NCBI GenBank assembly: GCA_965209085.1
Contig: OZ242376.1
Coordinates: 896,001-960,000 of the forward strand
Reading direction: 5' to 3'
Source: Nitrosopumilaceae archaeon
GTDB lineage: Archaea; Thermoproteota; Nitrososphaeria; Nitrososphaerales; Nitrosopumilaceae
DNA: 64,000 bases
Of the stretch, positions 51,449 to 64,000 are shown piece after piece. Position 1 is the stretch's first letter. Each line of letters opens with the position of its first letter. The notes beneath the pieces were generated by a model. That model was not told the origin of the DNA. It worked only from the letters and a program-made list of their open reading frames with translations, and made no database searches. The position numbers were made by a program, and so were the translations under genes.

Positions 51449-52243
51449 ATGACTGCAATAGCAATACCGGATTCATGTCTTGTTGACGAACGTACCCAGG
51501 TTGACAAATCGCGCAAGTTATCCCAGTTTGCAAGAACGTGCGCAGTGTTTGGAGTAAATACAATATACGTGTACGAGGATGGCGGCTCAAATTCGGATTT
51601 GGATCTATTGGTTGTGATTTTACGCTACATGGAGACGCCTCCATTTTTACGAAGAAGGCTGTTTCCAAAAGTTTCCGAATTAAAATATGCTGGAATTTTA
51701 GCGCCATTAAACATACCCAGTCATTCCAGTCCGCCCAATCCAAAAAAAATATCCGCCGGTAACATCCGTTCTGGCATTGTCGTATCGCAAAGGGGGAAAA
51801 AATACCTGGACATTGGAACGCCAGAGCCCTTCCCATACAGGGGAAAAACCGAATCAGGCAGGCGTACGGCGATAAAATTCAAAGCCGGATATCCGGAATT
51901 TGTTTACGAAGAGGTGGAAGAGACTGATTATTCCGGATATAAAACGCGTGAGCGCGGCTCGCTTGCAAATATTATCAAATCATGGGAGGGTCCTGTCATA
52001 CTCACCTCAAGGAAGGGGCGCGCCATCACGTCAGGGGATGTTAAATCCTTTGTGGCATCCAAAGGAAAGACGCTTCTTGCGTTTGGAAGCACCGAGAGGG
52101 GCGTTGGTGAAATTCTTGGAGGCCATGTAAAAACAATGCAAAATGCAAAAACTTTGAATTTCTTCCCCGGACAAAAAACACAAACCGTGCGTCTTGAAGA
52201 GGCGATGTTTGGATGCCTTGCTGTGCTGCATTCGGGGGCATAA
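51449..52243 (+). CDS. SPOUT RNA methyltransferase (DUF171/C9orf114-like)
   Basis: ETPPFLR, AGILAPL and PGQKTQTVRLEEA motifs. Confidence 0.88.
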   Translation: MTAIAIPDSCLVDERTQVDKSRKLSQFARTCAVFGVNTIYVYEDGGSNSDLDLLVVILRYMETPPFLRRRLFPKVSELKYAGILAPLNIPSHSSPPNPKKISAGNIRSGIVVSQRGKKYLDIGTPEPFPYRGKTESGRRTAIKFKAGYPEFVYEEVEETDYSGYKTRERGSLANIIKSWEGPVILTSRKGRAITSGDVKSFVASKGKTLLAFGSTERGVGEILGGHVKTMQNAKTLNFFPGQKTQTVRLEEAMFGCLAVLHSGA

Positions 52244-52251
52244 GATAACCC

Positions 52252-52359
52252 ATGGAGGGGAGACCATTTTTGCTGCTAGCGATAGGACTTGGAGCGTTTG
52301 GCGTTTGTGCCGGAGCCATCACCATATACTGGATGATTGAAAATATTTTACAACCCTAG
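52252..52359 (+). CDS. 35-aa single-TM microprotein
   Basis: Manual translation MEGRPFLLLAIGLGAFGVCAGAITIYWMIENILQP. Confidence 0.5.
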   Translation: MEGRPFLLLAIGLGAFGVCAGAITIYWMIENILQP

Positions 52360-52384
52360 ATATTCGTCTTTGTTAGAGCGGAAC

Positions 52385-52530
52385 TTTTTGCTTTCATCAT
52401 AACCGGGGTTAACATTTGATGCGATCTGGCAAGATTTCATTAAAACGGCTCTGAGCAAAAGCTTTTTTGGTCGTTTACGTTTATGATCTAAAAGATTTAC
52501 GGTATGTTTTTGATTTTAATCATGACTAGC
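52385..52530 (-). mobile_element. left-end fragment of the IS5 family at 1449/53441 (copy 3)
   Basis: Reverse complement matches 1458-1635 with small internal deletions. Confidence 0.8.
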
Positions 52531-52570
52531 GATTTAATTTTAGAAACTCTAAAATAGAAATATCAGAGTT

Positions 52571-53272
52571 TTGAAATTGATGATTCATAAGACAAGTTAT
52601 CAATCAATTCTGATAAATGATTTACTTGGACGATCACTAAATAATGTTGAAGCGAAATTTGCACCAAAGATGATTTTCTGCAAAGGTTCTATGGAAATCC
52701 CCATACCATGTCCAAGAGTCTCCATTATTGGTTCTAGAAAGGCATCAGATAGAGGACTTTTAGAAGCTAGAGAAATTTCAAAGATTTTGGTTGAAAATAA
52801 AACAACAATAGTAAGTGGACTTGCAAAAGGCATTGATACGGCAGGACATAAAACTGCTATAGAATATGGCGGTAGAACTATTGCAGTAATCGGAACTCCA
52901 TTAAACAAAGTATACCCAAAAGAAAATTCCAAGTTACAGGAAGAAATTATGAAAAATCATCTAGGTATTTCACAATATCCAGTTGGTCATTCAACTGTAC
53001 CTAAAGATTTTGTATTACGAAATCTAACTATGGCACTAATCTCAGATGCTACTGTTATTGTAGAAGCAGGAGAATCAAGCGGTTCATTGCATCAAGGCTG
53101 GGAAACGCTAAGAATAGGCAAACCGTTGTTTATTTGTAAAGATATGGTTGATGATGATAAATTAAAATGGCCAAAAGAAATGATACGGTATGGAGCTATG
53201 AGGCTTGATAATTCAACAGATATTTTAAAAAATTTACCAACAAATATTAAAATGCCAGAATTGTTTCAATAA
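52571..53272 (+). CDS. dprA: DprA/Smf family protein (Rossmann/SLOG domain only)
   Basis: IIGSRKAS, IVSGLAKGID..H, F..RN and VEAG..SGS motifs; AT-rich. Confidence 0.9.
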   Translation: MKLMIHKTSYQSILINDLLGRSLNNVEAKFAPKMIFCKGSMEIPIPCPRVSIIGSRKASDRGLLEAREISKILVENKTTIVSGLAKGIDTAGHKTAIEYGGRTIAVIGTPLNKVYPKENSKLQEEIMKNHLGISQYPVGHSTVPKDFVLRNLTMALISDATVIVEAGESSGSLHQGWETLRIGKPLFICKDMVDDDKLKWPKEMIRYGAMRLDNSTDILKNLPTNIKMPELFQ

Positions 53273-53281
53273 GGACTTGAA

Positions 53282-53416
53282 ATGAAGATATCCGAAATAA
53301 AATTTGGTTCATTATCAACTTTTACGCCAAAAACAGTAATTTCAACTGTGATTCATTTTATCCTAAATTTGCCTCAAATTCACGATAAATCCGAACAGAT
53401 CAATATGCCTCAATAG
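53282..53416 (+). pseudogene. truncated gene downstream of dprA, possibly the N-terminus of a PRTase partner
   Basis: ATG 9 nt after the dprA stop, MKISEIKFGSLSTFTPK...; ends just before the IS. Confidence 0.35.
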
Positions 53417-53440
53417 GATCACAATTGAGAGTGTTCACCC

Positions 53441-54141
53441 GGCTCTGTCCATGAATAAAATCAAAAACATACCATAAAGCTTTTAGATCATGAACGTAAA
53501 TGACCGAAAAAGCTTTGGATCAGTAGATCAGAGCCAATGTAATGAAATCAACAAAGCACAAACGACGAGGAAATCTTGCCAGATCACACCAAATGTTAAC
53601 CTCGATTATAATGAAAGCAAAAAATCAAGTGGTAAAGCCATGGAAACCAAGTCCGTTAGGACAAACCGGCTTTGACCACCTATCTTTCACGTAACATATG
53701 CACATTCGTAGAAAAGATCGGACAAATTCCTGTAATAATGCCAAGAAAAGGTGTTCGCGTACGTGGATTTGACGCAATGGGCAAAGATGGCATCATGATA
53801 ATCCTGATGAATTTCTATCCATATACTGCAAACGCAGCAACGTAGAGGCCACGTTTTCATCCATGAAGAGAAGGTTTTCATCCACTCCGAGTGCCCGCAA
53901 ATTTGCAACACAGAAAATTGAATTGGGCTTCTTTGTCGTGCCATAATATTCACATTCTAGATGCCGCAGTCTAGATTCTGACACTTTGTGTCAGATATGA
54001 TCCTAGCGTATGCTATACTCTAAAACCCAATATTTGCAATACTGGCAAGATGAGCAGGGCTTGATAATGATGGACATGTTGTATAATTTTGAATGAATTT
54101 AATCGGATTTTTATAAAAAATGCTCATTCATGGACAGAGCT
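53441..54141 (+). mobile_element. IS5-family internal-deletion derivative (copy 2)
   Basis: Perfect 15-bp TIR gctctgtccatgaat/attcatggacagagc; collinear with 1449-2612 but lacking ~450 bp (copy 1 ~1686-2134). Confidence 0.88.
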
Positions 54142-54186
54142 CAATACACGATCACGCTTATATACAAAATACACATATTATATAAT

Positions 54187-57039
54187 ATGAATAATACTGT
54201 TCCAGCATTAACATTTTTTTTCACACTTTTATTAATCCCTGCAATTCCACCAAATTTTGCAGATACAAATGTAGACGAAGCACACAACATTGCGACACAG
54301 AAAATGATCCAGCGGCATATTAACCTGCAATTTGGAGCGAGTAATTCGCCTCCTGTAAACGCAACAGCCAACACACCATCGTACATACCAATAATATTTT
54401 CAGCCGTGGACAATGATACACTAGTGGTAGGCATAGATGCACGCGTACTATCTGAAAACATAACGTACACAGAACAGCAGATTGCAGATTATATTGGCAT
54501 CAACGCTTCAATTGATATCAAATACATGAGCATCTCTTCGGATTCTTTAAGGATTAATTCCAATGAAAATTTACATCTTGAATTCCTAGCCGATATTTGT
54601 CATCCAATCATAGCCCTTGATTTTGAAGACAAATGTGTGAAATTTTTTACAGAATTGACAGCTGGAAACGTACTGACCAAAAACAACCCCCTGTCGGGTC
54701 AAAACTCCCCTAGCATGAACAACCCATGCGATGATTCGCTTTCTAGTCTTGCTTGTTATTTTTATAACCAGTATATTGCAAAATGCATACCAACTTATAC
54801 CAGATCTAGATGTGCATCTTATGCTGCGTTCATTACAAACGGTGGATATACCCTCCCAACAAGCTCGACAATATCTGACACCGTACCTCCAGTTATTACC
54901 ATACCTGACGATATTGTAAAGGTTGTATCTGGCACTAGTGCATATGTGGATTATCAAGTAAGCGCAACTGATAATGTTGATGAGACAGTTTCTGTCACAT
55001 GCAACCCGTCTAATAATGTATTTCCACTTGGAACTACTAGGGTAACATGCAGTAGCATGGATACCTCACAAAATACCGCAAGAGAGTCTTTTACGGTAAC
55101 TGTTACACAAAACACGCTCCAGTCTTCTGATACGGTTGTGTTTTCAGATGATTTTGAAAACGGACTTTCCAAATGGGTCGTATCTGGTGAGCTAAGGTGG
55201 AGAACTGGTCAATTAGACGAGAATGTTGCAATTTCAGGACACACAATTTCAAACAACGTTGCAGAAGCTGATGACTGTGATCGAGAATGCATATTGGAAA
55301 TGAGAAACGGTGTTGATTTATCCGATGTTACTTCTGCAACCCTTGAATTTTACAGATTTGTGGACAATAGCTTGGACCGGGGAGAATATCTCAAAGTAGA
55401 GGCATATGATGGCACATCGTGGAATCAACTGGCAATATACGGAGATGATTATGATACTAACGATGATGCATGGCATTTTGAAACCTTGGATATCTCAGAT
55501 TATACAAACTCTGATTTTAAAGTAAGATTCATCGTACTTGCAAGTAGCAGATCCGAAGACGTGGGAGTGGATGAAATTGCCATACGTATTAGGACATCCG
55601 TAACAGATCTGCCAACCATATTCTCGGATGATTTTGAAAACGGATTGTCTAAATGGACAAAAACAGGTGACTACAACTGGAACGATGAAACATTAGATGA
55701 TGGTGTAATAATCGATGGTTTTGATATCTCAAATCTTGTCGCACAGGCAGATAACTGCGACAATGTGTGCTTTTTGACAATGGCACAATCTGTTGATTTT
55801 TCTTCGGCATCTTCAAAATCACTCATATTTGACAGATTTGTTGATTCATCTTTGGATAGAAATGAATATTTACGCGTTGATGCATATGATGGCATATCGT
55901 GGACATATTTGGAAACATATGGTGATAATAACAACAAAAATGACAAAGAATGGCATAATGAAATCATAGATTTATCCGCATACACAAATGATGATTTTAA
56001 GATAAGATTTGTCGCCCAGACTAGTAAAAGTAGCGAAGAGGTGGCAGTAGACAACATACAGTTAAAGACAGGTGATTCGATTTCCACAATACAATTATCA
56101 AACATCACAGTTTATGCCGCGGAGCATGAAAGTAAACGCGTATCTTACAATCTGAACGCGCAAGGTGCTGCATCCGATGTCACTGTAATAAGATGCGACC
56201 CGCCTAGCGGATCGATATTCTCATCAACAACATCGGTCGAATGTATCGTGGACAGCATATACGGACCGTTCAAATACTTGTTTACGGTTTTTTTCAAACC
56301 TCCAGTTGAAATCTATGGAGGAACACCACATGTATTTTATCCGTCTCCTACTGCTAATGGATCTGCGGGTACAATAACAACAGGAGTTACAACCACTAAT
56401 GGCCATCATGGTGTTGTAGTGGCAGGTCATACCATAAACGCACCACGCAACTTTTACGAACCAACGCACGTAATTCCATTGTCACATAATCTGGATGATT
56501 TATCTAATACAGTGGTATTTTCCACATTGAATGGAATTGGTACTACTATTGGAAATTATGACGCGGCATTTATTCGGACAAGTAATAGTGACACAACTGC
56601 ACCATTAAACCACGTACGAATGTTAAACGGTACTATATTCACTGTAACTCATGGCACTTTATCTGACGTGGAAGTTTTGTCCACGATTAACATATACGGC
56701 CAATATAATAATAGAGATGGGTTACTTATTTTCAAAAACGCAACATTAGATAATACTCGAGGAACATTGACTGAAATGGGAATTGGTAATTATAAATCTA
56801 TAGATGGCGATAGTGGTGGTCCTATTGTTTATCATGGAGATGGTGCCGTACTTGTGGGTTTACATGGTGGTTCTGTTTGTATATTTACGCCCGAAGATGC
56901 CAACACTATAGATGTCAGTAATTCATCATTTTGTAATTCAAATATTATTATCACATCTCAAAATGGCGATTACCACAATGTATATTATAAATACTTCAGC
57001 GCATGGGAAAACGTAAAAAATGGTCTCAACGTACGATAA
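54187..57039 (+). CDS. large secreted multidomain S1 (trypsin-like) serine protease
   Basis: Signal peptide; HYR-like domain (DTVPPVI..VSATD..FPLGTT.V.C); two tandem FSDDFENGLSKW beta-sandwich repeats; C-terminal triad AGH / YDAAF / GDSGGP. Confidence 0.82.
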   Translation: MNNTVPALTFFFTLLLIPAIPPNFADTNVDEAHNIATQKMIQRHINLQFGASNSPPVNATANTPSYIPIIFSAVDNDTLVVGIDARVLSENITYTEQQIADYIGINASIDIKYMSISSDSLRINSNENLHLEFLADICHPIIALDFEDKCVKFFTELTAGNVLTKNNPLSGQNSPSMNNPCDDSLSSLACYFYNQYIAKCIPTYTRSRCASYAAFITNGGYTLPTSSTISDTVPPVITIPDDIVKVVSGTSAYVDYQVSATDNVDETVSVTCNPSNNVFPLGTTRVTCSSMDTSQNTARESFTVTVTQNTLQSSDTVVFSDDFENGLSKWVVSGELRWRTGQLDENVAISGHTISNNVAEADDCDRECILEMRNGVDLSDVTSATLEFYRFVDNSLDRGEYLKVEAYDGTSWNQLAIYGDDYDTNDDAWHFETLDISDYTNSDFKVRFIVLASSRSEDVGVDEIAIRIRTSVTDLPTIFSDDFENGLSKWTKTGDYNWNDETLDDGVIIDGFDISNLVAQADNCDNVCFLTMAQSVDFSSASSKSLIFDRFVDSSLDRNEYLRVDAYDGISWTYLETYGDNNNKNDKEWHNEIIDLSAYTNDDFKIRFVAQTSKSSEEVAVDNIQLKTGDSISTIQLSNITVYAAEHESKRVSYNLNAQGAASDVTVIRCDPPSGSIFSSTTSVECIVDSIYGPFKYLFTVFFKPPVEIYGGTPHVFYPSPTANGSAGTITTGVTTTNGHHGVVVAGHTINAPRNFYEPTHVIPLSHNLDDLSNTVVFSTLNGIGTTIGNYDAAFIRTSNSDTTAPLNHVRMLNGTIFTVTHGTLSDVEVLSTINIYGQYNNRDGLLIFKNATLDNTRGTLTEMGIGNYKSIDGDSGGPIVYHGDGAVLVGLHGGSVCIFTPEDANTIDVSNSSFCNSNIIITSQNGDYHNVYYKYFSAWENVKNGLNVR
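55138..56070 (+). repeat. tandem duplicated ~160-aa extracellular domain
   Basis: Unit 1 FSDDFENGLSKW...ADDCD..C...RFVDNSLDRGEYLKVEAYDG; unit 2 FSDDFENGLSKW...ADNCD..C...RFVDSSLDRNEYLRVDAYDG. Confidence 0.85.
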
Positions 57040-58336
57040 ACTCTCAATTATCATAGTAGGGATTATCATATCGGCCGCATTTGGTTTTGTATTTCTAATA
57101 TCAGAATACGATTTAAAATTACAGCTTGAAGATAATACAGAACAATCTGTTTCTGAAACAAACAATATAGAACAATATATCTCCAAAGCAAACAATACAG
57201 AACAATCTGTTTCCAAAGCAAACAATATACTTGCCATAAATTTGTACAAAATGCTCGAATCCGACGGTAATAAAAATATCTTTTTTTCACCCACAAGCAT
57301 ATTTGTAGGCATGATGATGGCATACGAGGGTACAAGAAACAATACTGCATTGCAGATGGAAGACGCACTTGACATATCTTCTGATGATAATTCACGCAGA
57401 AATGAAATAAAAGATCTAGTGGAGAGCCTTACAAACCCAAACTCAGATTATGATTTGGACATAAAAAACTCCCTGTGGGTTAGAGATAGTTTTCCAATAC
57501 TCCCCGAATATACCGATACGATGGCTGTCCATTACAACAATACCGTTGGTTCATTTAATGTACAAAGTTCTGATAAAATTAACAAATGGATGAATGATTC
57601 AACAAGGGGAAAGATACCTAAAATAGTAAACTATACGACACTATCGGATCCTGATTTGAATTTCATGATTGTCAACACGATTTTTTTTGATGGATCCTGG
57701 ATGAATGAATTCAAAGTAATAGATTCATATCAAAGTCAACACTCTTACATTGATTTTTGGATAAACAACGTTGAATTTGTAAGAACTAACTCGATGGTGC
57801 GTTCCGGTGAGTTTCAATACAGGCAAATCGACAATGTACAAATACTAAAACTCCCGTACAAGTCTGATCCGCAACGTCTGTCTATGGTAATAGTTCTTCC
57901 CGAAGAGAGGTACGGTATTGCTAAACTTGAAGAAAGACTTACAGCAGAGATATTTGCTGCGTGGGTAGATAGCACAGAGCTACAGAACAGCATTCAAGTG
58001 GTCATACCACCATTCAAATTAGATACAGAATATTCTGGATCGTTAATATCATCATTAAAAAAACTTGGAATAACTGATGCATTTGATAAAAAAAATTCCA
58101 ACATGTTGAATATGTCACCTGCACCTGAATTAAGCATCGACGATATGATTCACAGAGCATTTTTAAACGTGCATGAAAAAGGAACCGTTCCAGCGGATCC
58201 ACTTGTTGTGATGTTTGATGTTTTGAGATTAGCCACAAACACATTCAAAGTGGATCATCCGTTTATATTTGCAATATGGGATGATCAGACTAAAACCATT
58301 TTATTTATGGGTCGAATCTCAGATCCTACCGCATAA
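57020..58336 (+). CDS. membrane-anchored serpin (copy 1)
   Basis: N-terminal TM; NIFFSP, INKW..STRGKI, LKLPY, EKGT and F.VDHPFIF...ILFMGRI.DP motifs. Confidence 0.95.
   Translation: MVSTYDKLSIIIVGIIISAAFGFVFLISEYDLKLQLEDNTEQSVSETNNIEQYISKANNTEQSVSKANNILAINLYKMLESDGNKNIFFSPTSIFVGMMMAYEGTRNNTALQMEDALDISSDDNSRRNEIKDLVESLTNPNSDYDLDIKNSLWVRDSFPILPEYTDTMAVHYNNTVGSFNVQSSDKINKWMNDSTRGKIPKIVNYTTLSDPDLNFMIVNTIFFDGSWMNEFKVIDSYQSQHSYIDFWINNVEFVRTNSMVRSGEFQYRQIDNVQILKLPYKSDPQRLSMVIVLPEERYGIAKLEERLTAEIFAAWVDSTELQNSIQVVIPPFKLDTEYSGSLISSLKKLGITDAFDKKNSNMLNMSPAPELSIDDMIHRAFLNVHEKGTVPADPLVVMFDVLRLATNTFKVDHPFIFAIWDDQTKTILFMGRISDPTA
57133..57226 (+). repeat. 3 x 30-bp tandem repeat in the serpin stalk
   Basis: NTEQSVSETN-NIEQYISKAN-NTEQSVSKAN; also present in copy 2 (~61122-61215). 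Confidence 0.85.
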
Positions 58337-58393
58337 TGTCCGTTTAATGGACTGAAAACATGCAAGTCCGATGCACTTGAAGTGTTGGCAGAT

Positions 58394-59608
58394 CCATGAG
58401 TTCGTGGTCCGTGAGACCTTTAGAGTAAGTGAGAGTATCTGTGCTATTGTGTTCCTGAGTTTTGAGCCCTGATAGGTGAGTGCAGCTTTTCAGCCGACAA
58501 AGGAAAAAGGAGGTGAAAAACATTGGAATTGACATTGGAAAAAAGACATGCGTAGTGTGTATTGTAGATGATTTTGGTAAAATACTAGAGGAGACAAAAT
58601 ACAACAATACCAGAAAAGATGCCAAAAAATTTGCCATGCGTGTCAAAAAAAAGTACAAAGCGTGCAGAGCAGTATGCGAATCCACCGCCAACATGTGGAT
58701 AAAGACATCGAAGAATTTGAAGTTCAGAAAATATCTATAAAACTAGCAAATCCGTTTAAAACAAAGGCTATAGCACAGGCAAAAATAAAGACCGACAAGC
58801 TTGATGCAAGTCTTGGCACAACTGTGCAGAACGGATTTTGTGGCCGAATGCTATGTGGTATCTATAAGAAATCCTGCGAAAATCGGGATCTTCTCAGGCA
58901 TAGAATACGACTAGTGGAAGATCAGACAAAAGTAAAAGCAAGAGTAATCAGCATACTGGACAAATACGACTTAACCAATACAGAAAAGCACGTTTGGCGT
59001 ACATGGTATTGCATGGCTCAAAAAACAACAATACGATAACGGCAAAGGCAAGGCGATAATATTATCATGCATAAGACAGATTGAGCATATAGATTCAGAG
59101 ATTGGTATGACAGAAGAACTCATCAGAGCAGAAGCAAAACATGACCAGTACGCCAAAACAATGAGTATGATCGGATTTGATTATTTTGGAGCCATGCTGC
59201 TTGCAACGGAAATTGATCGCATTGACAGATTTGATACGCCAAAACAACTTGTCTCATGGTCTGGTATGTGTCCTACAGTACACCAGTCTGGAGATTCGTT
59301 ATATCATGGCAAGATGAAAAAAGATTCAAACCGTAAAGTGAACTGGATGTTGACGCAGGCTGCAAACTCTACGATAAGAGCGGATGGGAGGATGAAAAAA
59401 TACTATCAACGCATACACAAAAAACATCCACACTCGGTGGCAGTAACACACGTTGCAAACAAAATGATAACGATAATCTGGCACATGCTGACAAACGATA
59501 AACCATACGATGTAAAACCAAAACTCTACGCTCAAAAGATCAACTGTGCATAAGGATTAGGCTGATTGGCAACGAGGAATCAACCATTGTGTCCGGATTG
59601 CTTACATA
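58394..59608 (+). mobile_element. IS110-family element with frameshifted recombinase
   Basis: IGIDIGK (DEDD RuvC), KTDKLDA and PTVHQSG motifs in fragments 58513-58740, ~58710-59039 and ~59040-59553; no TIR; ends approximate. Confidence 0.85.
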
Positions 59609-59940
59609 GGTGTTTTTCTGAAAGATGGCATTCTCTGCCAAGATGTTTATGTTGTATATGGAGGTTAGTCCATCCTCCATTACCCTGTATGAGTCATTGG
59701 CATATTGTTGTCTCTTTTACACCAAATTCCTCGCCAATCTCCTCCATTGTTTTGCCCTGTTTTCTTTTAATCCATGAGAGAAGACGCTGTTTTTGCAACT
59801 GGAATCTTTTCTTTTGCATGACAATTTCCAAGATATGCGTTGAGTTGTTTGCTTAGATTGTCCATATTGTGATGGATGTTGTACCGATCAAAAAGTTTTA
59901 CTGTTTATGCAATATGAAAAGACTTTTGCTCATGACTATA
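59609..59940 (-). mobile_element. IS630-like element left-end remnant
   Basis: Manual translation of broken frames gives RLLSWIKRKQGKTMEEIGEEFGVKETTICQ* and MEDGLTSIYNINIFGRECHLS (IS630-type HTH); starts at TA|TAGTCATGAGC. Confidence 0.55.
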
Positions 59941-59999
59941 GGGTCTGCCAACACTTCAAGTGCATCGGACTTGCATGTTTTCAGTCCATTAAACGGACA

Positions 60000-61328
60000 T
60001 TATGCGGTAGGATCTGAGATTCGACCCATAAATAAAATGGTTTCAGTCTGATCATCCCATATTGCAAATATAAACGGATGATCCGCTTTGAATATGATTG
60101 AGGAGAATCTCAAAACATCCTCCATCGCAGCAGGTGGATCCGCTGGAACGGTTCCTTTTTCATGCACGTTTAAAAATGCTCTGTGAATCATATCGTCGAT
60201 GCTTAATTCAGGTGCAGGTGACATATTCAACATGTTGGAATTTTTTTTATCAAATGCATCAGTTATTCCAAGTTTTTTTAATGATGATATTAACGATCCA
60301 GAATATTCTGTATCTAATTTGAATGTTGGTATGATCACTTGAATGCTGTTCTGTAGCTCTGTGCTATCTATCCACGCAACAAATATCTCTGCTGTAAGTC
60401 TTTCTTCAAGTTTAGCAATACCGTACCTCTCTTCGGGAAGAACTATTACCATAGACAGACGTTGCGGATCAGACTTGTACGGGAGTTTTAGTATTTGTAC
60501 ATTGTCGATTTGTCTGTATTGTACATTCTCAAATTGTCTGTATTGTGCACCACCGGCACGCACCATCACGTTAGTTTTTACAGATTCAACATTGTTTATC
60601 CAAAAATCAACGTAGCCTATTCTATCTTCTGCTATGAATTCATCCATCCAGGATCCATAAAAAAAAATCGTGTTGACAATCATGAAATTCAAATCAGGAT
60701 CCGATAGTGTCGTATAGTTTACTATTTTAGGTATCTTTCCCCTTGTTGAATCATTCATCCATTTGTTAATTTTATCAGAACTTTGTGCATTAAATGAACC
60801 AACGGTATTGTTGTAATGGACAGCCATCGTATCGGTGTATTCGGGGAGTATTGGAAAACTATCTCTAACCCACAGGGAGTTTTTTATGTCCAAATCATAA
60901 TCTGAGTTTGGGTTTGTAAGGCTCTCCACTAGATCTATTATTTCATTTCTGCGTGAATTATCATCAGAAGATATGTCAAGTGCGTCTTCCATCTGCAATG
61001 CAGTATTGTTTCTTGTACCCTCGTATGCCATCATCATGCCTACAAATATGCTTGTGGGTGAAAAAAAGATATTTTTATTACCGTCGGATTCGAGCATTTT
61101 GTACAAATTTATGGCAAGTATATTGTTTGCTTTGGAAACAGATTGTTCTGTATTGTTTGCTTTGGAGATATATTGTTCTATATTGTTTGTTTCAGAAACA
61201 GATTGTTCTGTATTATCTTCAAGCTGTAATTTTAAATCGTATTCTGATATTAGAAATACAAAACCAAATGCGGCCGATATGATAATCCCTACTATGATAA
61301 TTGAGAGTTTATCGTATGTTGAGACCAT
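60000..61328 (-). CDS. membrane-anchored serpin (copy 2)
   Basis: Near-identical to copy 1 except for the RCL and the segment after GSW; 24-bp duplication QYRQFENV-QYRQIDNV. Confidence 0.95.
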   Translation of the reverse strand: MVSTYDKLSIIIVGIIISAAFGFVFLISEYDLKLQLEDNTEQSVSETNNIEQYISKANNTEQSVSKANNILAINLYKMLESDGNKNIFFSPTSIFVGMMMAYEGTRNNTALQMEDALDISSDDNSRRNEIIDLVESLTNPNSDYDLDIKNSLWVRDSFPILPEYTDTMAVHYNNTVGSFNAQSSDKINKWMNDSTRGKIPKIVNYTTLSDPDLNFMIVNTIFFYGSWMDEFIAEDRIGYVDFWINNVESVKTNVMVRAGGAQYRQFENVQYRQIDNVQILKLPYKSDPQRLSMVIVLPEERYGIAKLEERLTAEIFVAWIDSTELQNSIQVIIPTFKLDTEYSGSLISSLKKLGITDAFDKKNSNMLNMSPAPELSIDDMIHRAFLNVHEKGTVPADPPAAMEDVLRFSSIIFKADHPFIFAIWDDQTETILFMGRISDPTA

Positions 61329-61954
61329 TTTTTACGTTTTCCCATGCGCTGAAGTATTTATAATATTTATTGTTGTATTCGCCATTTTGGGATACAGTTA
61401 TACTTGAATTACAAAATGATGAATTACTGACATCTATAGTGTTGGTATCTTCGGGTGTAAATATACAAACAGAACCAACATGTACACCCACAAGTACGGC
61501 GCCATCCCCATGATAAACAATAGGAGCCCCATTATCGCCAATTCTAGATTTATAATTGTCAATTCCCATTTCAGTGTATGTTCCTTGAATACTATCTATT
61601 GTTACGTTTTTGAAAACAAGACTCCCATCATCATTATTATATTGACCGTATATGTTAATCGTGGACAAAACTTCCATGTCAGATAAAGTGCCATGAGTTA
61701 CAGTGAATATAGTACCGTTTAACATTCGTACGTGGTTTAATGGTGCAGTTGTGTCACTATTACTTGTCCGAATAAATGCCGCGTCATAATTTCCAATAGT
61801 ACCAATTCCATTCAATGTGGAAAATACCACTGTATTAGATAAATCATCCAGATTATGTGACAATGGAATTACGTGCGTTGGTTCGTAAAAGTTGCGTGGT
61901 GCGTATATGCTATGACCTGCCACTACAACACCATGATGGCCATTAGTGGTTGTA
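61309..61954 (-). pseudogene. truncated S1 protease domain (copy 2), catalytic Ser replaced by Asn
   Basis: AGH and YDAAF retained, GDNGAP instead of GDSGGP; 5' part replaced by the IS3. Confidence 0.85.
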
Positions 61955-63194
61955 TGGTGCGGATCCCTGTACAATGAGAACGTTTTTTGCATTAAAAATG
62001 ATAGGATCGGAGGGCTTATTTTATCATTGCCCTCCGTGCGAGACCAAATTCTGATGGCACCACACATCCTATTGCAGTGTACCTGGTTCTGATTATAGTC
62101 CTCAAAGGCGTATGATATTGCATTCTCTGCGTCCTAGAACGGCTCAAAGTCGCGCGGCCAGACATACTCTTTCTTGAGATTCTTGTGGAAGGATTCCACA
62201 TGAGCATTTTGCTCTGACGTGTGATAGTGGATGAATTCCTGCCTCACACCGTATACTTTTACAGCCTTGTCAAATTGCGCTAAAATATACTGGGAACCGT
62301 TGTCGGTTCTTAAAACAAGCTTTGAGCAGTCTGGTTTCTTGGATGCCAAAGCTTCAGTTAATGCTGCAATTGCACCGTCGGTAATAGCTCTTGACTCAAA
62401 CGCATATCCGACCCATTCGCGGGTAAATGCAAAGGATGTTGAATAGGTAACACCATCTGTCCTGACCGCACCAAATGTACGTCATGTCAGCTTTCCAGAG
62501 CTGATCCGGTCCTACAGGTTTTAGGCGCTTCCTTGAGCGAATAATCTCTTTTTTGGGTTTTGCAGACACACTCCGGCCCAGATAATGGTATATTTTCTTC
62601 ACTTTTTTGCAGTTTACTGGCCTGCCCGTAATACGGGACATGGTGGCAGCCATTCTTCGTGTTCCATATGTGGGTCTGCTCTGAGCAACCTGATGCACCA
62701 TCTTTGAGATTTCCTTGTCGATTTGAATAATGCGTGGTTTTTTCGGAGCGTACAGCATATTGTTTGATATTCCGGTATAACGTATGGATTTGCGTGTACT
62801 GAGGCCTTGTTTTTGCATGAGGGTCAATGCTTTCATTTTGTGCTCTCCTCTAACGTTTTTTTTAAAGCATCATTGGCTATGGTTAGATCTCCAATGATTC
62901 TCTTCAACTTGTCCATCTCATGATCGTGCTTTTTACTCTCATTACGATTATACGGTTTTTTTATGCCTGCCTTGCCACATTCAAAGAATATGTCCCTCCA
63001 CCGGGTAAAGGATGCCGGATTTATGTTATGTTTGCGACACAGTTCTGCAGGAGTGATGTGCGTGTTTATTGACTCCATGACGATACGCACCTTTTCGTCT
63101 GGAGCATGATGTGGTCTTTTCATTGATGGATACCTCCAAGACTGGGTAAAATTTGTTTCACTTTGGGTGTTCTCATTTTATGGGGTCCACTCCA
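61955..63194 (-). mobile_element. IS3-family element, inactivated
   Basis: Ends TGGTGCGGATCCCTGTACAATGAGAAC / GTTCTCATTTTATGGGGTCCACTCCA; orfA 62833-63123 ATGA-coupled to orfB (YGTRRM, WKADMTYI, TDNGSQY, VESFH), which has a frameshift and a stop; no TSD. Confidence 0.9.
62833..63123 (-). CDS. IS3 transposase OrfA (HTH)
   Basis: EKVRIV..AELCRKHNI...RW followed by a leucine-zipper-like tail. Confidence 0.88.
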   Translation of the reverse strand: MKRPHHAPDEKVRIVMESINTHITPAELCRKHNINPASFTRWRDIFFECGKAGIKKPYNRNESKKHDHEMDKLKRIIGDLTIANDALKKTLEESTK

Positions 63195-63252
63195 ATGCTT
63201 GATATCATATTTTGTATGCTAAAGGATAGGAGTGAATTTGAAATACATTATA

Positions 63253-63323
63253 GTTAAAGCAACAAACCGCGGGTTAGACTTTGGGGATGTTACCCCGGCT
63301 GCATAACTGCGGTAAGCTTTAAC
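63253..63323 (+). other. long GC-rich imperfect hairpin, candidate structured RNA
   Basis: Stacked stems gttaaagc/gctttaac, accgcgggtta/taactgcggt and ttgggg/ccccgg. Confidence 0.5.
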
Positions 63324-63471
63324 ATGTGGATAAATATGGTTGTGGGATTAAATCCTGAATGGATAGATGTCTTTTCATCTTTTGGTTGGAACCAGACACA
63401 TAGTGAAAGCCATACCGCATGACACAAAAAAGCAAGAAACCTTTAAAAAGTATTCACATGGATAAACTCTA

Positions 63472-64000
63472 TTATTCAAAGAGTTTATTCTTGCTAATCG
63501 TACTATCTTCGCCTATTAATCTATCGCCATTTACTTTGTACATGCCATACTCGCTAGACAAAGGCCACCATGCATCTGGAAAAATACGATGAGCTCTATC
63601 CACCATGATAAATACTTGATCTCCCTCATCATATAGTATCCTTGTAGAAGGAAATCTGTTTACAATCTCAATTGTATCGTGTTCATATTCTTCTGTACCT
63701 CCTAGTATTTCATCAACATTGAGAAAATATTTAGTGTATGATGATTCACATCTAGATGTACAATTTTCTTCCGTGACTGTTCCTTTTTCCATCGAAGTTA
63801 TTGTGCCGATCATTACGAGTTGTGCTATATCTTTTATTTCATACGGATCTGTTGTAGTAAATGAACCAAAAGATTTCATAGGTTTGGAATTAATTTCAGA
63901 TGCATCAGTCAAATTCAATGCGTGTGGATTGTCACTTGAGGTTTCTGATTTTTTAGTATTTTTCAAATCATCATTGTTCGTATGTATTTCCGAATTACTC
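63472..64000 (-). CDS. hypothetical protein, 5' end probably outside the window
   Basis: Frame is open to the window edge; C-terminal beta-rich domain (LVMIGTI, LNVDEILGG, GDQVFIM). Confidence 0.65.
   Translation of the reverse strand, partial: SNSEIHTNNDDLKNTKKSETSSDNPHALNLTDASEINSKPMKSFGSFTTTDPYEIKDIAQLVMIGTITSMEKGTVTEENCTSRCESSYTKYFLNVDEILGGTEEYEHDTIEIVNRFPSTRILYDEGDQVFIMVDRAHRIFPDAWWPLSSEYGMYKVNGDRLIGEDSTISKNKLFE

Follow-up and report, generated by a model that had tools for sequence, protein, structure and literature searches.

In the rodent serpin clusters (Serpina3/Spi-2 and Serpina1), hypervariable reactive centres are carried on near-identical scaffolds, replacements are concentrated in the loop, and concerted evolution and loop diversity are found together. 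The 64,000-nt stretch of a Nitrosopumilaceae genome analysed here (the window) holds two serpin genes in opposite orientation, S1 (57020-58336, forward strand) and S2 (60000-61328, reverse strand), that share with the rodent clusters both the near-identity of paralogue scaffolds and the concentration of replacements in the reactive-centre loop. They differ from those clusters in belonging to an archaeon, in lying in inverted and dispersed copies bounded by insertion sequences (IS), in conserving the presumed P1 region while its flanks vary, and in having a non-canonical hinge. The pattern is of a kind known from animal serpin clusters, met here in a new lineage, and we argue that it probably arose by gene conversion, which homogenised the scaffold while older, type-specific cassettes in the loop and in sheet C persisted. 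Throughout, coordinates without a prefix are positions in the window, and those prefixed G000 are whole-genome positions of the same genome.

The genome is a single contig of 1.69 Mb with a G+C content of 41%; it encodes an archaeal AmoA (E 4.5e-119), and the organism is therefore an ammonia-oxidising archaeon. In sponge-associated ammonia oxidisers, secreted serpins are expanded and lie beside secreted peptidases, and they have been proposed to control peptidases of the cell itself or proteases of the host (PMC6790972, PMC7848895). The neighbouring enzymes there are S8A subtilisin-like, whereas the neighbour at the present locus ends in a chymotrypsin-fold, alpha-lytic-like domain without a Pfam model; loop mosaicism, gene conversion and hinge loss go unmentioned in the accessible main text of the same two reports. 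Our literature search, which covered main texts, likewise found neither mosaic loops nor gene conversion described for any archaeal serpin. Among young animal duplicates, SERPINB3/B4 and others show adaptive loop change, as far as the accessible text of the sources goes (PMC4136820, PMC12646145), and there as here the duplicates differ mainly in the loop. On that same partial account, P1 and its neighbours change with target class in those cases, whereas here the loop core is fixed and the case for positive selection is unproven.

Two patches of divergence in near-identical serpin genes

S1 encodes 438 amino acids comprising an N-terminal hydrophobic anchor, a repeat linker and a full serpin domain (Pfam Serpin, PF00079, E 4.7e-89, profile positions 2-370 of 370), and the 442 amino acids of S2 match the whole of the same profile (E 1.5e-87). 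An AlphaFold (AF2) model of S1 (pLDDT 83.4, pTM 0.80) was compared with solved serpins by Foldseek and resembles PAI-2, antithrombin and alpha-1-antitrypsin (probability 1.00, TMt 0.8-0.9, maximum 0.90); the full-length profile match and this predicted fold together place S1 in the serpin superfamily. By sequence, the closest solved structure is that of the bacterial serpin Chloropin (PDB 8gxv, E 6e-53), which shares the fold and the C-terminal motifs, but its hinge is the canonical GTEAAAAT and its loop exceeds that of S1 by three residues. In S1, the stretch at 58175-58252 (forward strand) runs from Glu386 to Val411, includes the hinge EKGTVPADP and is modelled with pLDDT below 50 at residues 390-401. 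We assign it to the reactive-centre-loop position because it starts exactly at P17, Glu386, which is invariant in an alignment of 70 serpins.

Within this loop, S1 and S2 differ at 10 codons and 12 bases, all confined to a 51-nt patch (58202-58252 on the forward strand in S1, 60084-60134 on the reverse strand in S2). An earlier note on this DNA had described ten changed codons, all amino-acid altering, around a fixed DVLR core and between near-identical flanks, and the codon comparison bears out each part of that description. In S1 numbering, and giving S1 before S2, the changes are 395 ctt/cct, 396 gtt/gct, 397 gtg/gcg, 399 ttt/gag, 404 tta/ttc, 405 gcc/tcc, 406 aca/tca, 407 aac/atc, 408 aca/ata and 411 gtg/gcg, and the residue is altered in 10 of 10. 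The base differences comprise five transitions and seven transversions, and fall three, seven and two at codon positions 1, 2 and 3. All four DVLR codons (58217-58228, forward strand) are the same in S1 and S2, the upstream flank is free of differences between 58010 and 58203, and between 58251 and the stop codon only position 58292 differs. When the 1188 gap-free nucleotides outside the second variable patch (see below) are considered, 12 of the 22 differences between the two genes lie within these 51 nt, a clustering that none of 20000 random placements matched.

This clustering is the strong signal, indeed an overwhelming one, whereas the wholly non-synonymous character of the changes is not overwhelming and, taken alone, is weak. 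By Nei-Gojobori counting, codons 386-419 have 23.2 synonymous sites with 0.25 differences and 78.8 non-synonymous sites with 11.75, and in the A+T-rich 51-nt patch the 11.5 synonymous sites carry no difference whereas the 39.5 replacement sites carry 12 (Fisher test, p = 0.038). Such an excess favours an explanation in which a young duplication was followed by recent positive (diversifying) selection that retargeted an inhibitor, as has been proposed for duplicated animal serpins, and this explanation gains further from a loop pN of 0.30 that exceeds the pS of 0.12 in unconverted old patches (Fisher p 0.013, with the patches picked post hoc) and from the lack of any synonymous change, which fits a young background. 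Against it, 12 random substitutions placed in the patch with the observed transition/transversion mix produced no synonymous codon change in 12.5% of 20000 trials, that is, with a chance of 0.125.

The loop is accompanied by a second variable patch, which was absent from the earlier note's account, as was a third gene copy, S3. This patch covers codons 224-266 (57689-57817, forward strand), carries a 4-codon and an 8-codon indel, and reaches pS 0.134 and pN 0.232. It begins at the end of strand s3A and takes in s4C and s3C; we name the strands by matching the order of DSSP elements in the model to standard serpin topology. In S2 and S3 it contains an 8-codon tandem duplication (in S2 at about 60519-60545). 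S3 lies 230 kb away, differs from S2 at 2 nt of 1329 and has the same loop as S2.

Synonymous divergence between the S1 and S2 units, each of which includes part of a neighbouring protease gene, is correspondingly patchy: most of the serpin and the stretch 56388-56699 have a pS of 0.013, which rises to 0.12 in the protease patches at 56700-57036 and is highest in the second variable patch. Outside both serpin patches, pN is 0.0143 and pS 0.0137. Comparison of the three DNA copies yields 128 sites at which S1 is the odd one out, 13 at which S2 is, 17 at which S3 is, and 4 with three states. The S2-odd and S3-odd sites run together, as in the 11 consecutive S3-odd sites at 56443-56514, and such runs are what short conversion tracts would leave.

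Mosaic structure and cross-genome sharing of loop states

A protein search recovered four close relatives, P0002, P0004, P0005 and P0006 (identities, as a set, of 93, 88, 85 and 83%), all encoded on one 339.5-kb contig of another genome. In the alignment of the seven proteins, eight columns (36, 47, 54, 58, 84, 125, 207 and 321) are fixed by genome, S1, S2 and S3 agreeing with one another there and differing from all four proteins of the other genome. Grouping is by type in the second patch, at positions 328 and 331, in the loop and at position 425, where S1 falls with P0002 and P0004, and S2 and S3 fall with P0005 and P0006. The two halves of the gene also give conflicting maximum-likelihood trees: residues 1-223 recover an own-genome clade with support of 100/100 and reject the type clade (approximately unbiased (AU) test, p 0.002), whereas residues 224 to the end recover the type split with support of 96/95, the own-genome clade being the one rejected here (AU p 0.017). 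S2 is itself a mosaic, mostly S1-like, yet P0006-like in the second patch, at positions 328 and 331 and at residues 399-425. The triplet runs test of S2 against S1 and P0006 gives 5e-5, that of P0006 against P0002 and S2 gives 0 of 20000, and the runs tests overall lie between 5e-5 and 0.003. The marks by which gene conversion is judged are all present: gene parts with conflicting trees, synonymous divergence that varies from patch to patch, and incompatible sites that run together among the copies. The earlier note had called for gene-conversion tests, and these returned conflicting half-gene trees, a mosaic S2 and runs of odd sites; together with the eight genome-fixed states, they make the second of its two explanations, gene conversion homogenising everything except the variable loops, the better supported.

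The loop differences themselves are shared across the two genomes. At the ten changed codons, the S2 residue is also found in the other genome at eight, the S1 residue at six, and both at five; S2 equals P0006 at seven, and S1 has its state in common with P0002 at loop positions 396, 404, 407 and 411, as well as at 425. Variable columns among the seven proteins make up 20 of 25 in the loop against 34 of 305 in the scaffold (Fisher p 2e-13). Because loop states recur in the other genome, most of the loop differences are older than the apparent age of their flanks and represent inherited differences between types; the combination of identical flanks with a replacement-rich loop thus reflects, for the most part, young sequence joined to old in a mosaic.

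The same recurrence, of S2 states at eight codons and of the P0006 state at seven, counts against recent positive selection, as do the presumed P3-P1' residues, which are the same in both copies, and a hinge that lies outside the inhibitory consensus. Nor does S4 versus S5, an older pair of serpin genes in this genome, show an excess, with a loop pN/pS of 0.45-0.51 against 0.50 gene-wide. On the other side, four of the ten S1 loop states are unique among the seven proteins. The strong diversifying selection on target specificity that the earlier note had put first is thus not established, given a chance of about 0.12 for the all-replacement pattern, S2 states shared at eight of ten codons, a fixed DVLR, a non-consensus hinge and an S4/S5 loop without excess, and we regard recent selection for a new target as unlikely.

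We propose instead that S1 and S2 would be two older paralogue types, not young duplicates diverging in the loop. Non-reciprocal recombination between copies in the genome would have evened the scaffold, above all its N-terminal half but also the stretch between the two patches, and two cassettes would have been kept by type. One is the s3A-s4C-s3C patch, and the other joins strand s1C to the part of the loop between P8 and roughly P6'. At a later point, S2 would have been copied with its IS flanks to or from the second site, now occupied by S3. Convertants that erased the loop differences may have been removed by selection, leaving the cell with several loop types, and the loops may contact a protease, either the cell's own or that of a host; selection keeping the loops different is plausible. 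A blastn search of 52000-64000 against the genome found the loop patch only in S1, S2 and S3, and so no donor of the S1 loop elsewhere in it.

Several points weigh against gene conversion between old types as the explanation. The absence of synonymous differences is more to be expected of a background homogenised recently (P(0) = 0.85) than of an old, unconverted patch (P(0) = 0.24), which amounts to a likelihood ratio of about 3.5 towards recent replacement changes. The S1 loop is shared only in part with that of its nearest relative, P0002, and, given its four unique states, the S1 lineage has probably undergone some rapid change. The groups used in the trees and runs tests were named after the alignment had been viewed, which somewhat weakens the p-values, and the four relatives were compared as proteins only. 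The closeness of the two variable patches in space is a prediction from serpin topology. Finally, at all 12 loop positions every covering contig of four public runs carries the S2 letters, a result to be read with the fact that contigs drop minority variants, such that missing S1 letters do not show the S1 type to be absent; that no loop variant other than the S2 letters occurs in these contigs is equally uninformative on minority variants.

The failure to see S1-type loop letters in the contigs of the four runs also speaks for an artefact, in the form of an assembly or consensus error within the repeat. The character of the differences speaks against one: they are 12 in-frame substitutions with no indel, and the S1-specific second patch is matched without mismatch by contigs of two runs, at about one third of the depth of the shared sequence. 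Moreover, P0002, from another genome, shares the S1 state at the four loop positions and at position 425 listed above, which argues that the S1 loop is real. Programmed mutagenesis, with a diversity-generating retroelement rewriting the loop, was considered and rejected. The 98%-complete genome gave no match to RVT_1 (reverse transcriptase) in a search whose control run matched 3 of 14 control genomes, and the changes show no adenine specificity on either strand, the S1 bases at the 12 sites being T at seven, A at three, and G and C at one each. We hold it highly improbable that either an artefact or such an element produced the loop difference.

The hinge and the conserved loop core

The inhibitory hinge from P17 to P9 is summarised as E-[EKR]-G-[TS]-x-[AGS]x4 (PMC2770083) or as ExGTEAAAA (PMC8233489). 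The E-K-G-T-V-P-A-D-P of S1 and S2 departs from this consensus, with Pro at P12, Asp at P10 and Pro at P9. Of 64 other homologues, 63 have Ala at P12, 62 have Ala at P10 and none has Pro anywhere from P13 to P9, whereas Pro stands at P12 in all six distinct sequences of the present subfamily. From its sequence, an inhibitory function of the S1/S2 subfamily is doubtful, and its members may be substrate-like or otherwise non-canonical binders. Non-inhibitory serpin-fold proteins outside the hinge consensus (PMC2770083) likewise have no stretch of small residues at P12-P9; the proteins studied here differ from them in keeping P17 Glu, P15 Gly and P14 Thr and in conserving a short loop core.

If the prolines had broken the hinge and inhibition had been lost, constraint on the loop might have relaxed and its sequence might simply drift. 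The contrast between Pro and Ala at P12 is consistent with such an explanation, as are the Asp, Thr or Ser found at P10 in the subfamily where the other homologues have Ala, the confinement of Pro at P13-P9 to the subfamily in the set of 70, and the near equality of pN and pS between S1 and S2 outside the patches. Drift is difficult to reconcile, however, with seven intact reading frames across two genomes, or with the conservation within the subfamily of VP at P13-P12 (six of six sequences), GTVPA (five of six) and a D-[VI]-[LS]-[RK] core (six of six). The distal loop of S2 is, in addition, the same as that of P0006 across genomes, which points to conservation of type, and a background pS of 0.013 cannot yield 24% divergence in 51 nt by drift. 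Relaxed constraint therefore strikes us as an improbable account of the loop.

Further indications come from the position of the variable residues relative to the presumed cleavage site. Following the rule that P1 lies 16 residues after P17, Leu402 would be P1 and Arg403 P1' in both S1 and S2, 17 residues running from P17 to P1 inclusive. On this count DVLR would be the putative P3-P2-P1-P1', with variability falling at P8-P4 and P2'-P6'; the loops of P0004 and P0006 are one residue longer. DVLR is the same in S1, S2, S3, P0004 and P0006, and is replaced by DVSR in P0002 and by DILK in P0005. A P1 neighbourhood that varies among paralogues, as expected of serpin clusters with accelerated loops, was not found here. 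In the animal cases P1 itself varies, the reverse of what S1 and S2 present, and variable flanks around a fixed core argue against a simple retargeting of primary specificity.

There is, in our view, a slim chance of something more unusual, namely that these proteins are not suicide inhibitors but form a new functional class of membrane-tethered archaeal serpin-fold proteins. In such a class, a proline-stiffened hinge would block insertion of the loop, the exposed loop would serve as a fixed bait or as a cleavable decoy for the co-encoded alpha-lytic-like protease or for host proteases, and gene conversion between copies would shuffle a small repertoire of loop cassettes. If true, a host-associated ammonia oxidiser would recognise proteases by means of a system of cassettes.

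The neighbouring protease, the other serpins and the repeats

Upstream of S1 lies a gene for a secreted multidomain protein of 969 amino acids (54130-57039, forward strand), with HYR and MAM-like parts (Pfam HYR and MAM) and a serine-protease domain at its end. Its stop codon overlaps the start of S1 by 20 nt, and within the explanation that we prefer, S1 is translationally coupled to it. The C-terminal domain (56230-57036, forward strand) resembles alpha-lytic protease and streptogrisin, with His67, Asp111 and Ser195 in domain numbering and a GDSGGP motif. Its AlphaFold (AF2) model has a pLDDT of 90 and matches 2sfa, 2oua, 2pfe and alpha-lytic protease in Foldseek (probability 1.00, TMt 0.72-0.80), Streptomyces proteases being among these matches; on this model, the fold and the ordered His-Asp-Ser triad indicate a chymotrypsin-fold enzyme (S1 protease class). 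The domain has 80 homologues in a representative protein library, and the H67, D111 and S195 columns are at least 90% conserved in 44 sequences. For this domain, the last 270 or so residues of the encoded protein, there was no Pfam match at E up to 10 and no NCBIfam match at E up to 1, and the best match among PDB sequences has E 0.08.

The protease domain occurs three times in the genome, always beside S1, S2 or S3. The copy beside S2 (61309-62067, reverse strand) lacks roughly 750 residues at its N-terminus and carries Asn where the catalytic Ser would stand (GDNGAP), and the copy beside S3 (G000 726359-727000) is likewise truncated and also has Asn for the catalytic Ser. Both truncated copies keep His and Asp, and their differences cluster near the active site (56700-56900, pS 0.12, pN 0.145). 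Complex prediction of the protease domain with the serpin domain, run without controls, gave scores of 0.68, 0.00 and 0.26, with a median below the mark, and is not used as evidence here.

At the N-terminus of S1, the model places a hydrophobic helix at residues 7-22, and judging from the sequence the protein is most likely tethered to the membrane and faces outward. Three units of a 30-nt tandem repeat (57134-57227, forward strand) encode a linker of 10-residue repeats between this anchor and the serpin domain; P0005 has four, and the copy number differs among the serpin paralogues.

The genome has six serpin genes in all, S1-S6. S4 (G000 754330-755613), S5 (G000 255445-256734) and S6 have 40-50% identity to S1 and canonical hinges. 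Between S4 and S5, a tract at alignment columns 136-180 has a pS of 0-0.05 against 0.26 overall, which suggests that gene conversion has also acted between these two. In the same family, a search found a serpin at E <= 1e-20 in 76 of the 400 other genomes covered, a tally that counts one genome flagged as unpublished (G355), and in none of the 400 does identity to S1 exceed 40%. Nor did any of 40 relatives hold a sequence more than 40% identical to S1.

S1 and S2 sit in the arms of an inverted repeat. The left arm (56388-58401, forward strand) contains the 3' part of the protease gene and S1 and is 94% identical both to 59935-61954 and to G000 724982-727001. The right arm (59935-61954, reverse strand), with S2 and its protease fragment, lies inside a segment (58345-63124) that is repeated at G000 723384-728171 with 98.5% identity. 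Between the arms is an IS110-family transposase gene split into three open reading frames (58480-59553, forward strand; Pfam DEDD_Tnp_IS110 and Transposase_20), and a broken IS3-like element (61955-63195, reverse strand), which has at least 15 related copies in the genome, abuts the distal arm and bounds the duplicated unit. The same broken forms of both transposases recur in the duplicated segment at G000 723384-728171. Three short non-coding repeats, at 53441-53681 (about 240 nt), 53681-54141 (about 460 nt) and 63195-63475 (about 280 nt), occur at about 10 to more than 15 other sites in the genome with 90-98% identity, and look like miniature inverted-repeat transposable elements (MITEs) or IS-end elements. 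The one of about 460 nt ends at the protease start codon.

In animals, hypervariable loops on near-identical serpin scaffolds are a classic case of duplication, concerted evolution and selection acting together at a surface that contacts proteases. Their presence in an ammonia-oxidising archaeon means that this pattern is not bound to animal immunity or coagulation. It also shows that a patch of replacements alone, set in identical flanks, can come from mosaic ancestry without recent positive selection, which guards against over-reading such patches. With one intact protease, three linked serpin-fold genes and two loop types, the locus offers a small and tractable system for the role of serpins in archaea. 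Its most promising leads, and targets for biochemistry, are the proline-bearing hinge and the protease domain that has no family model.

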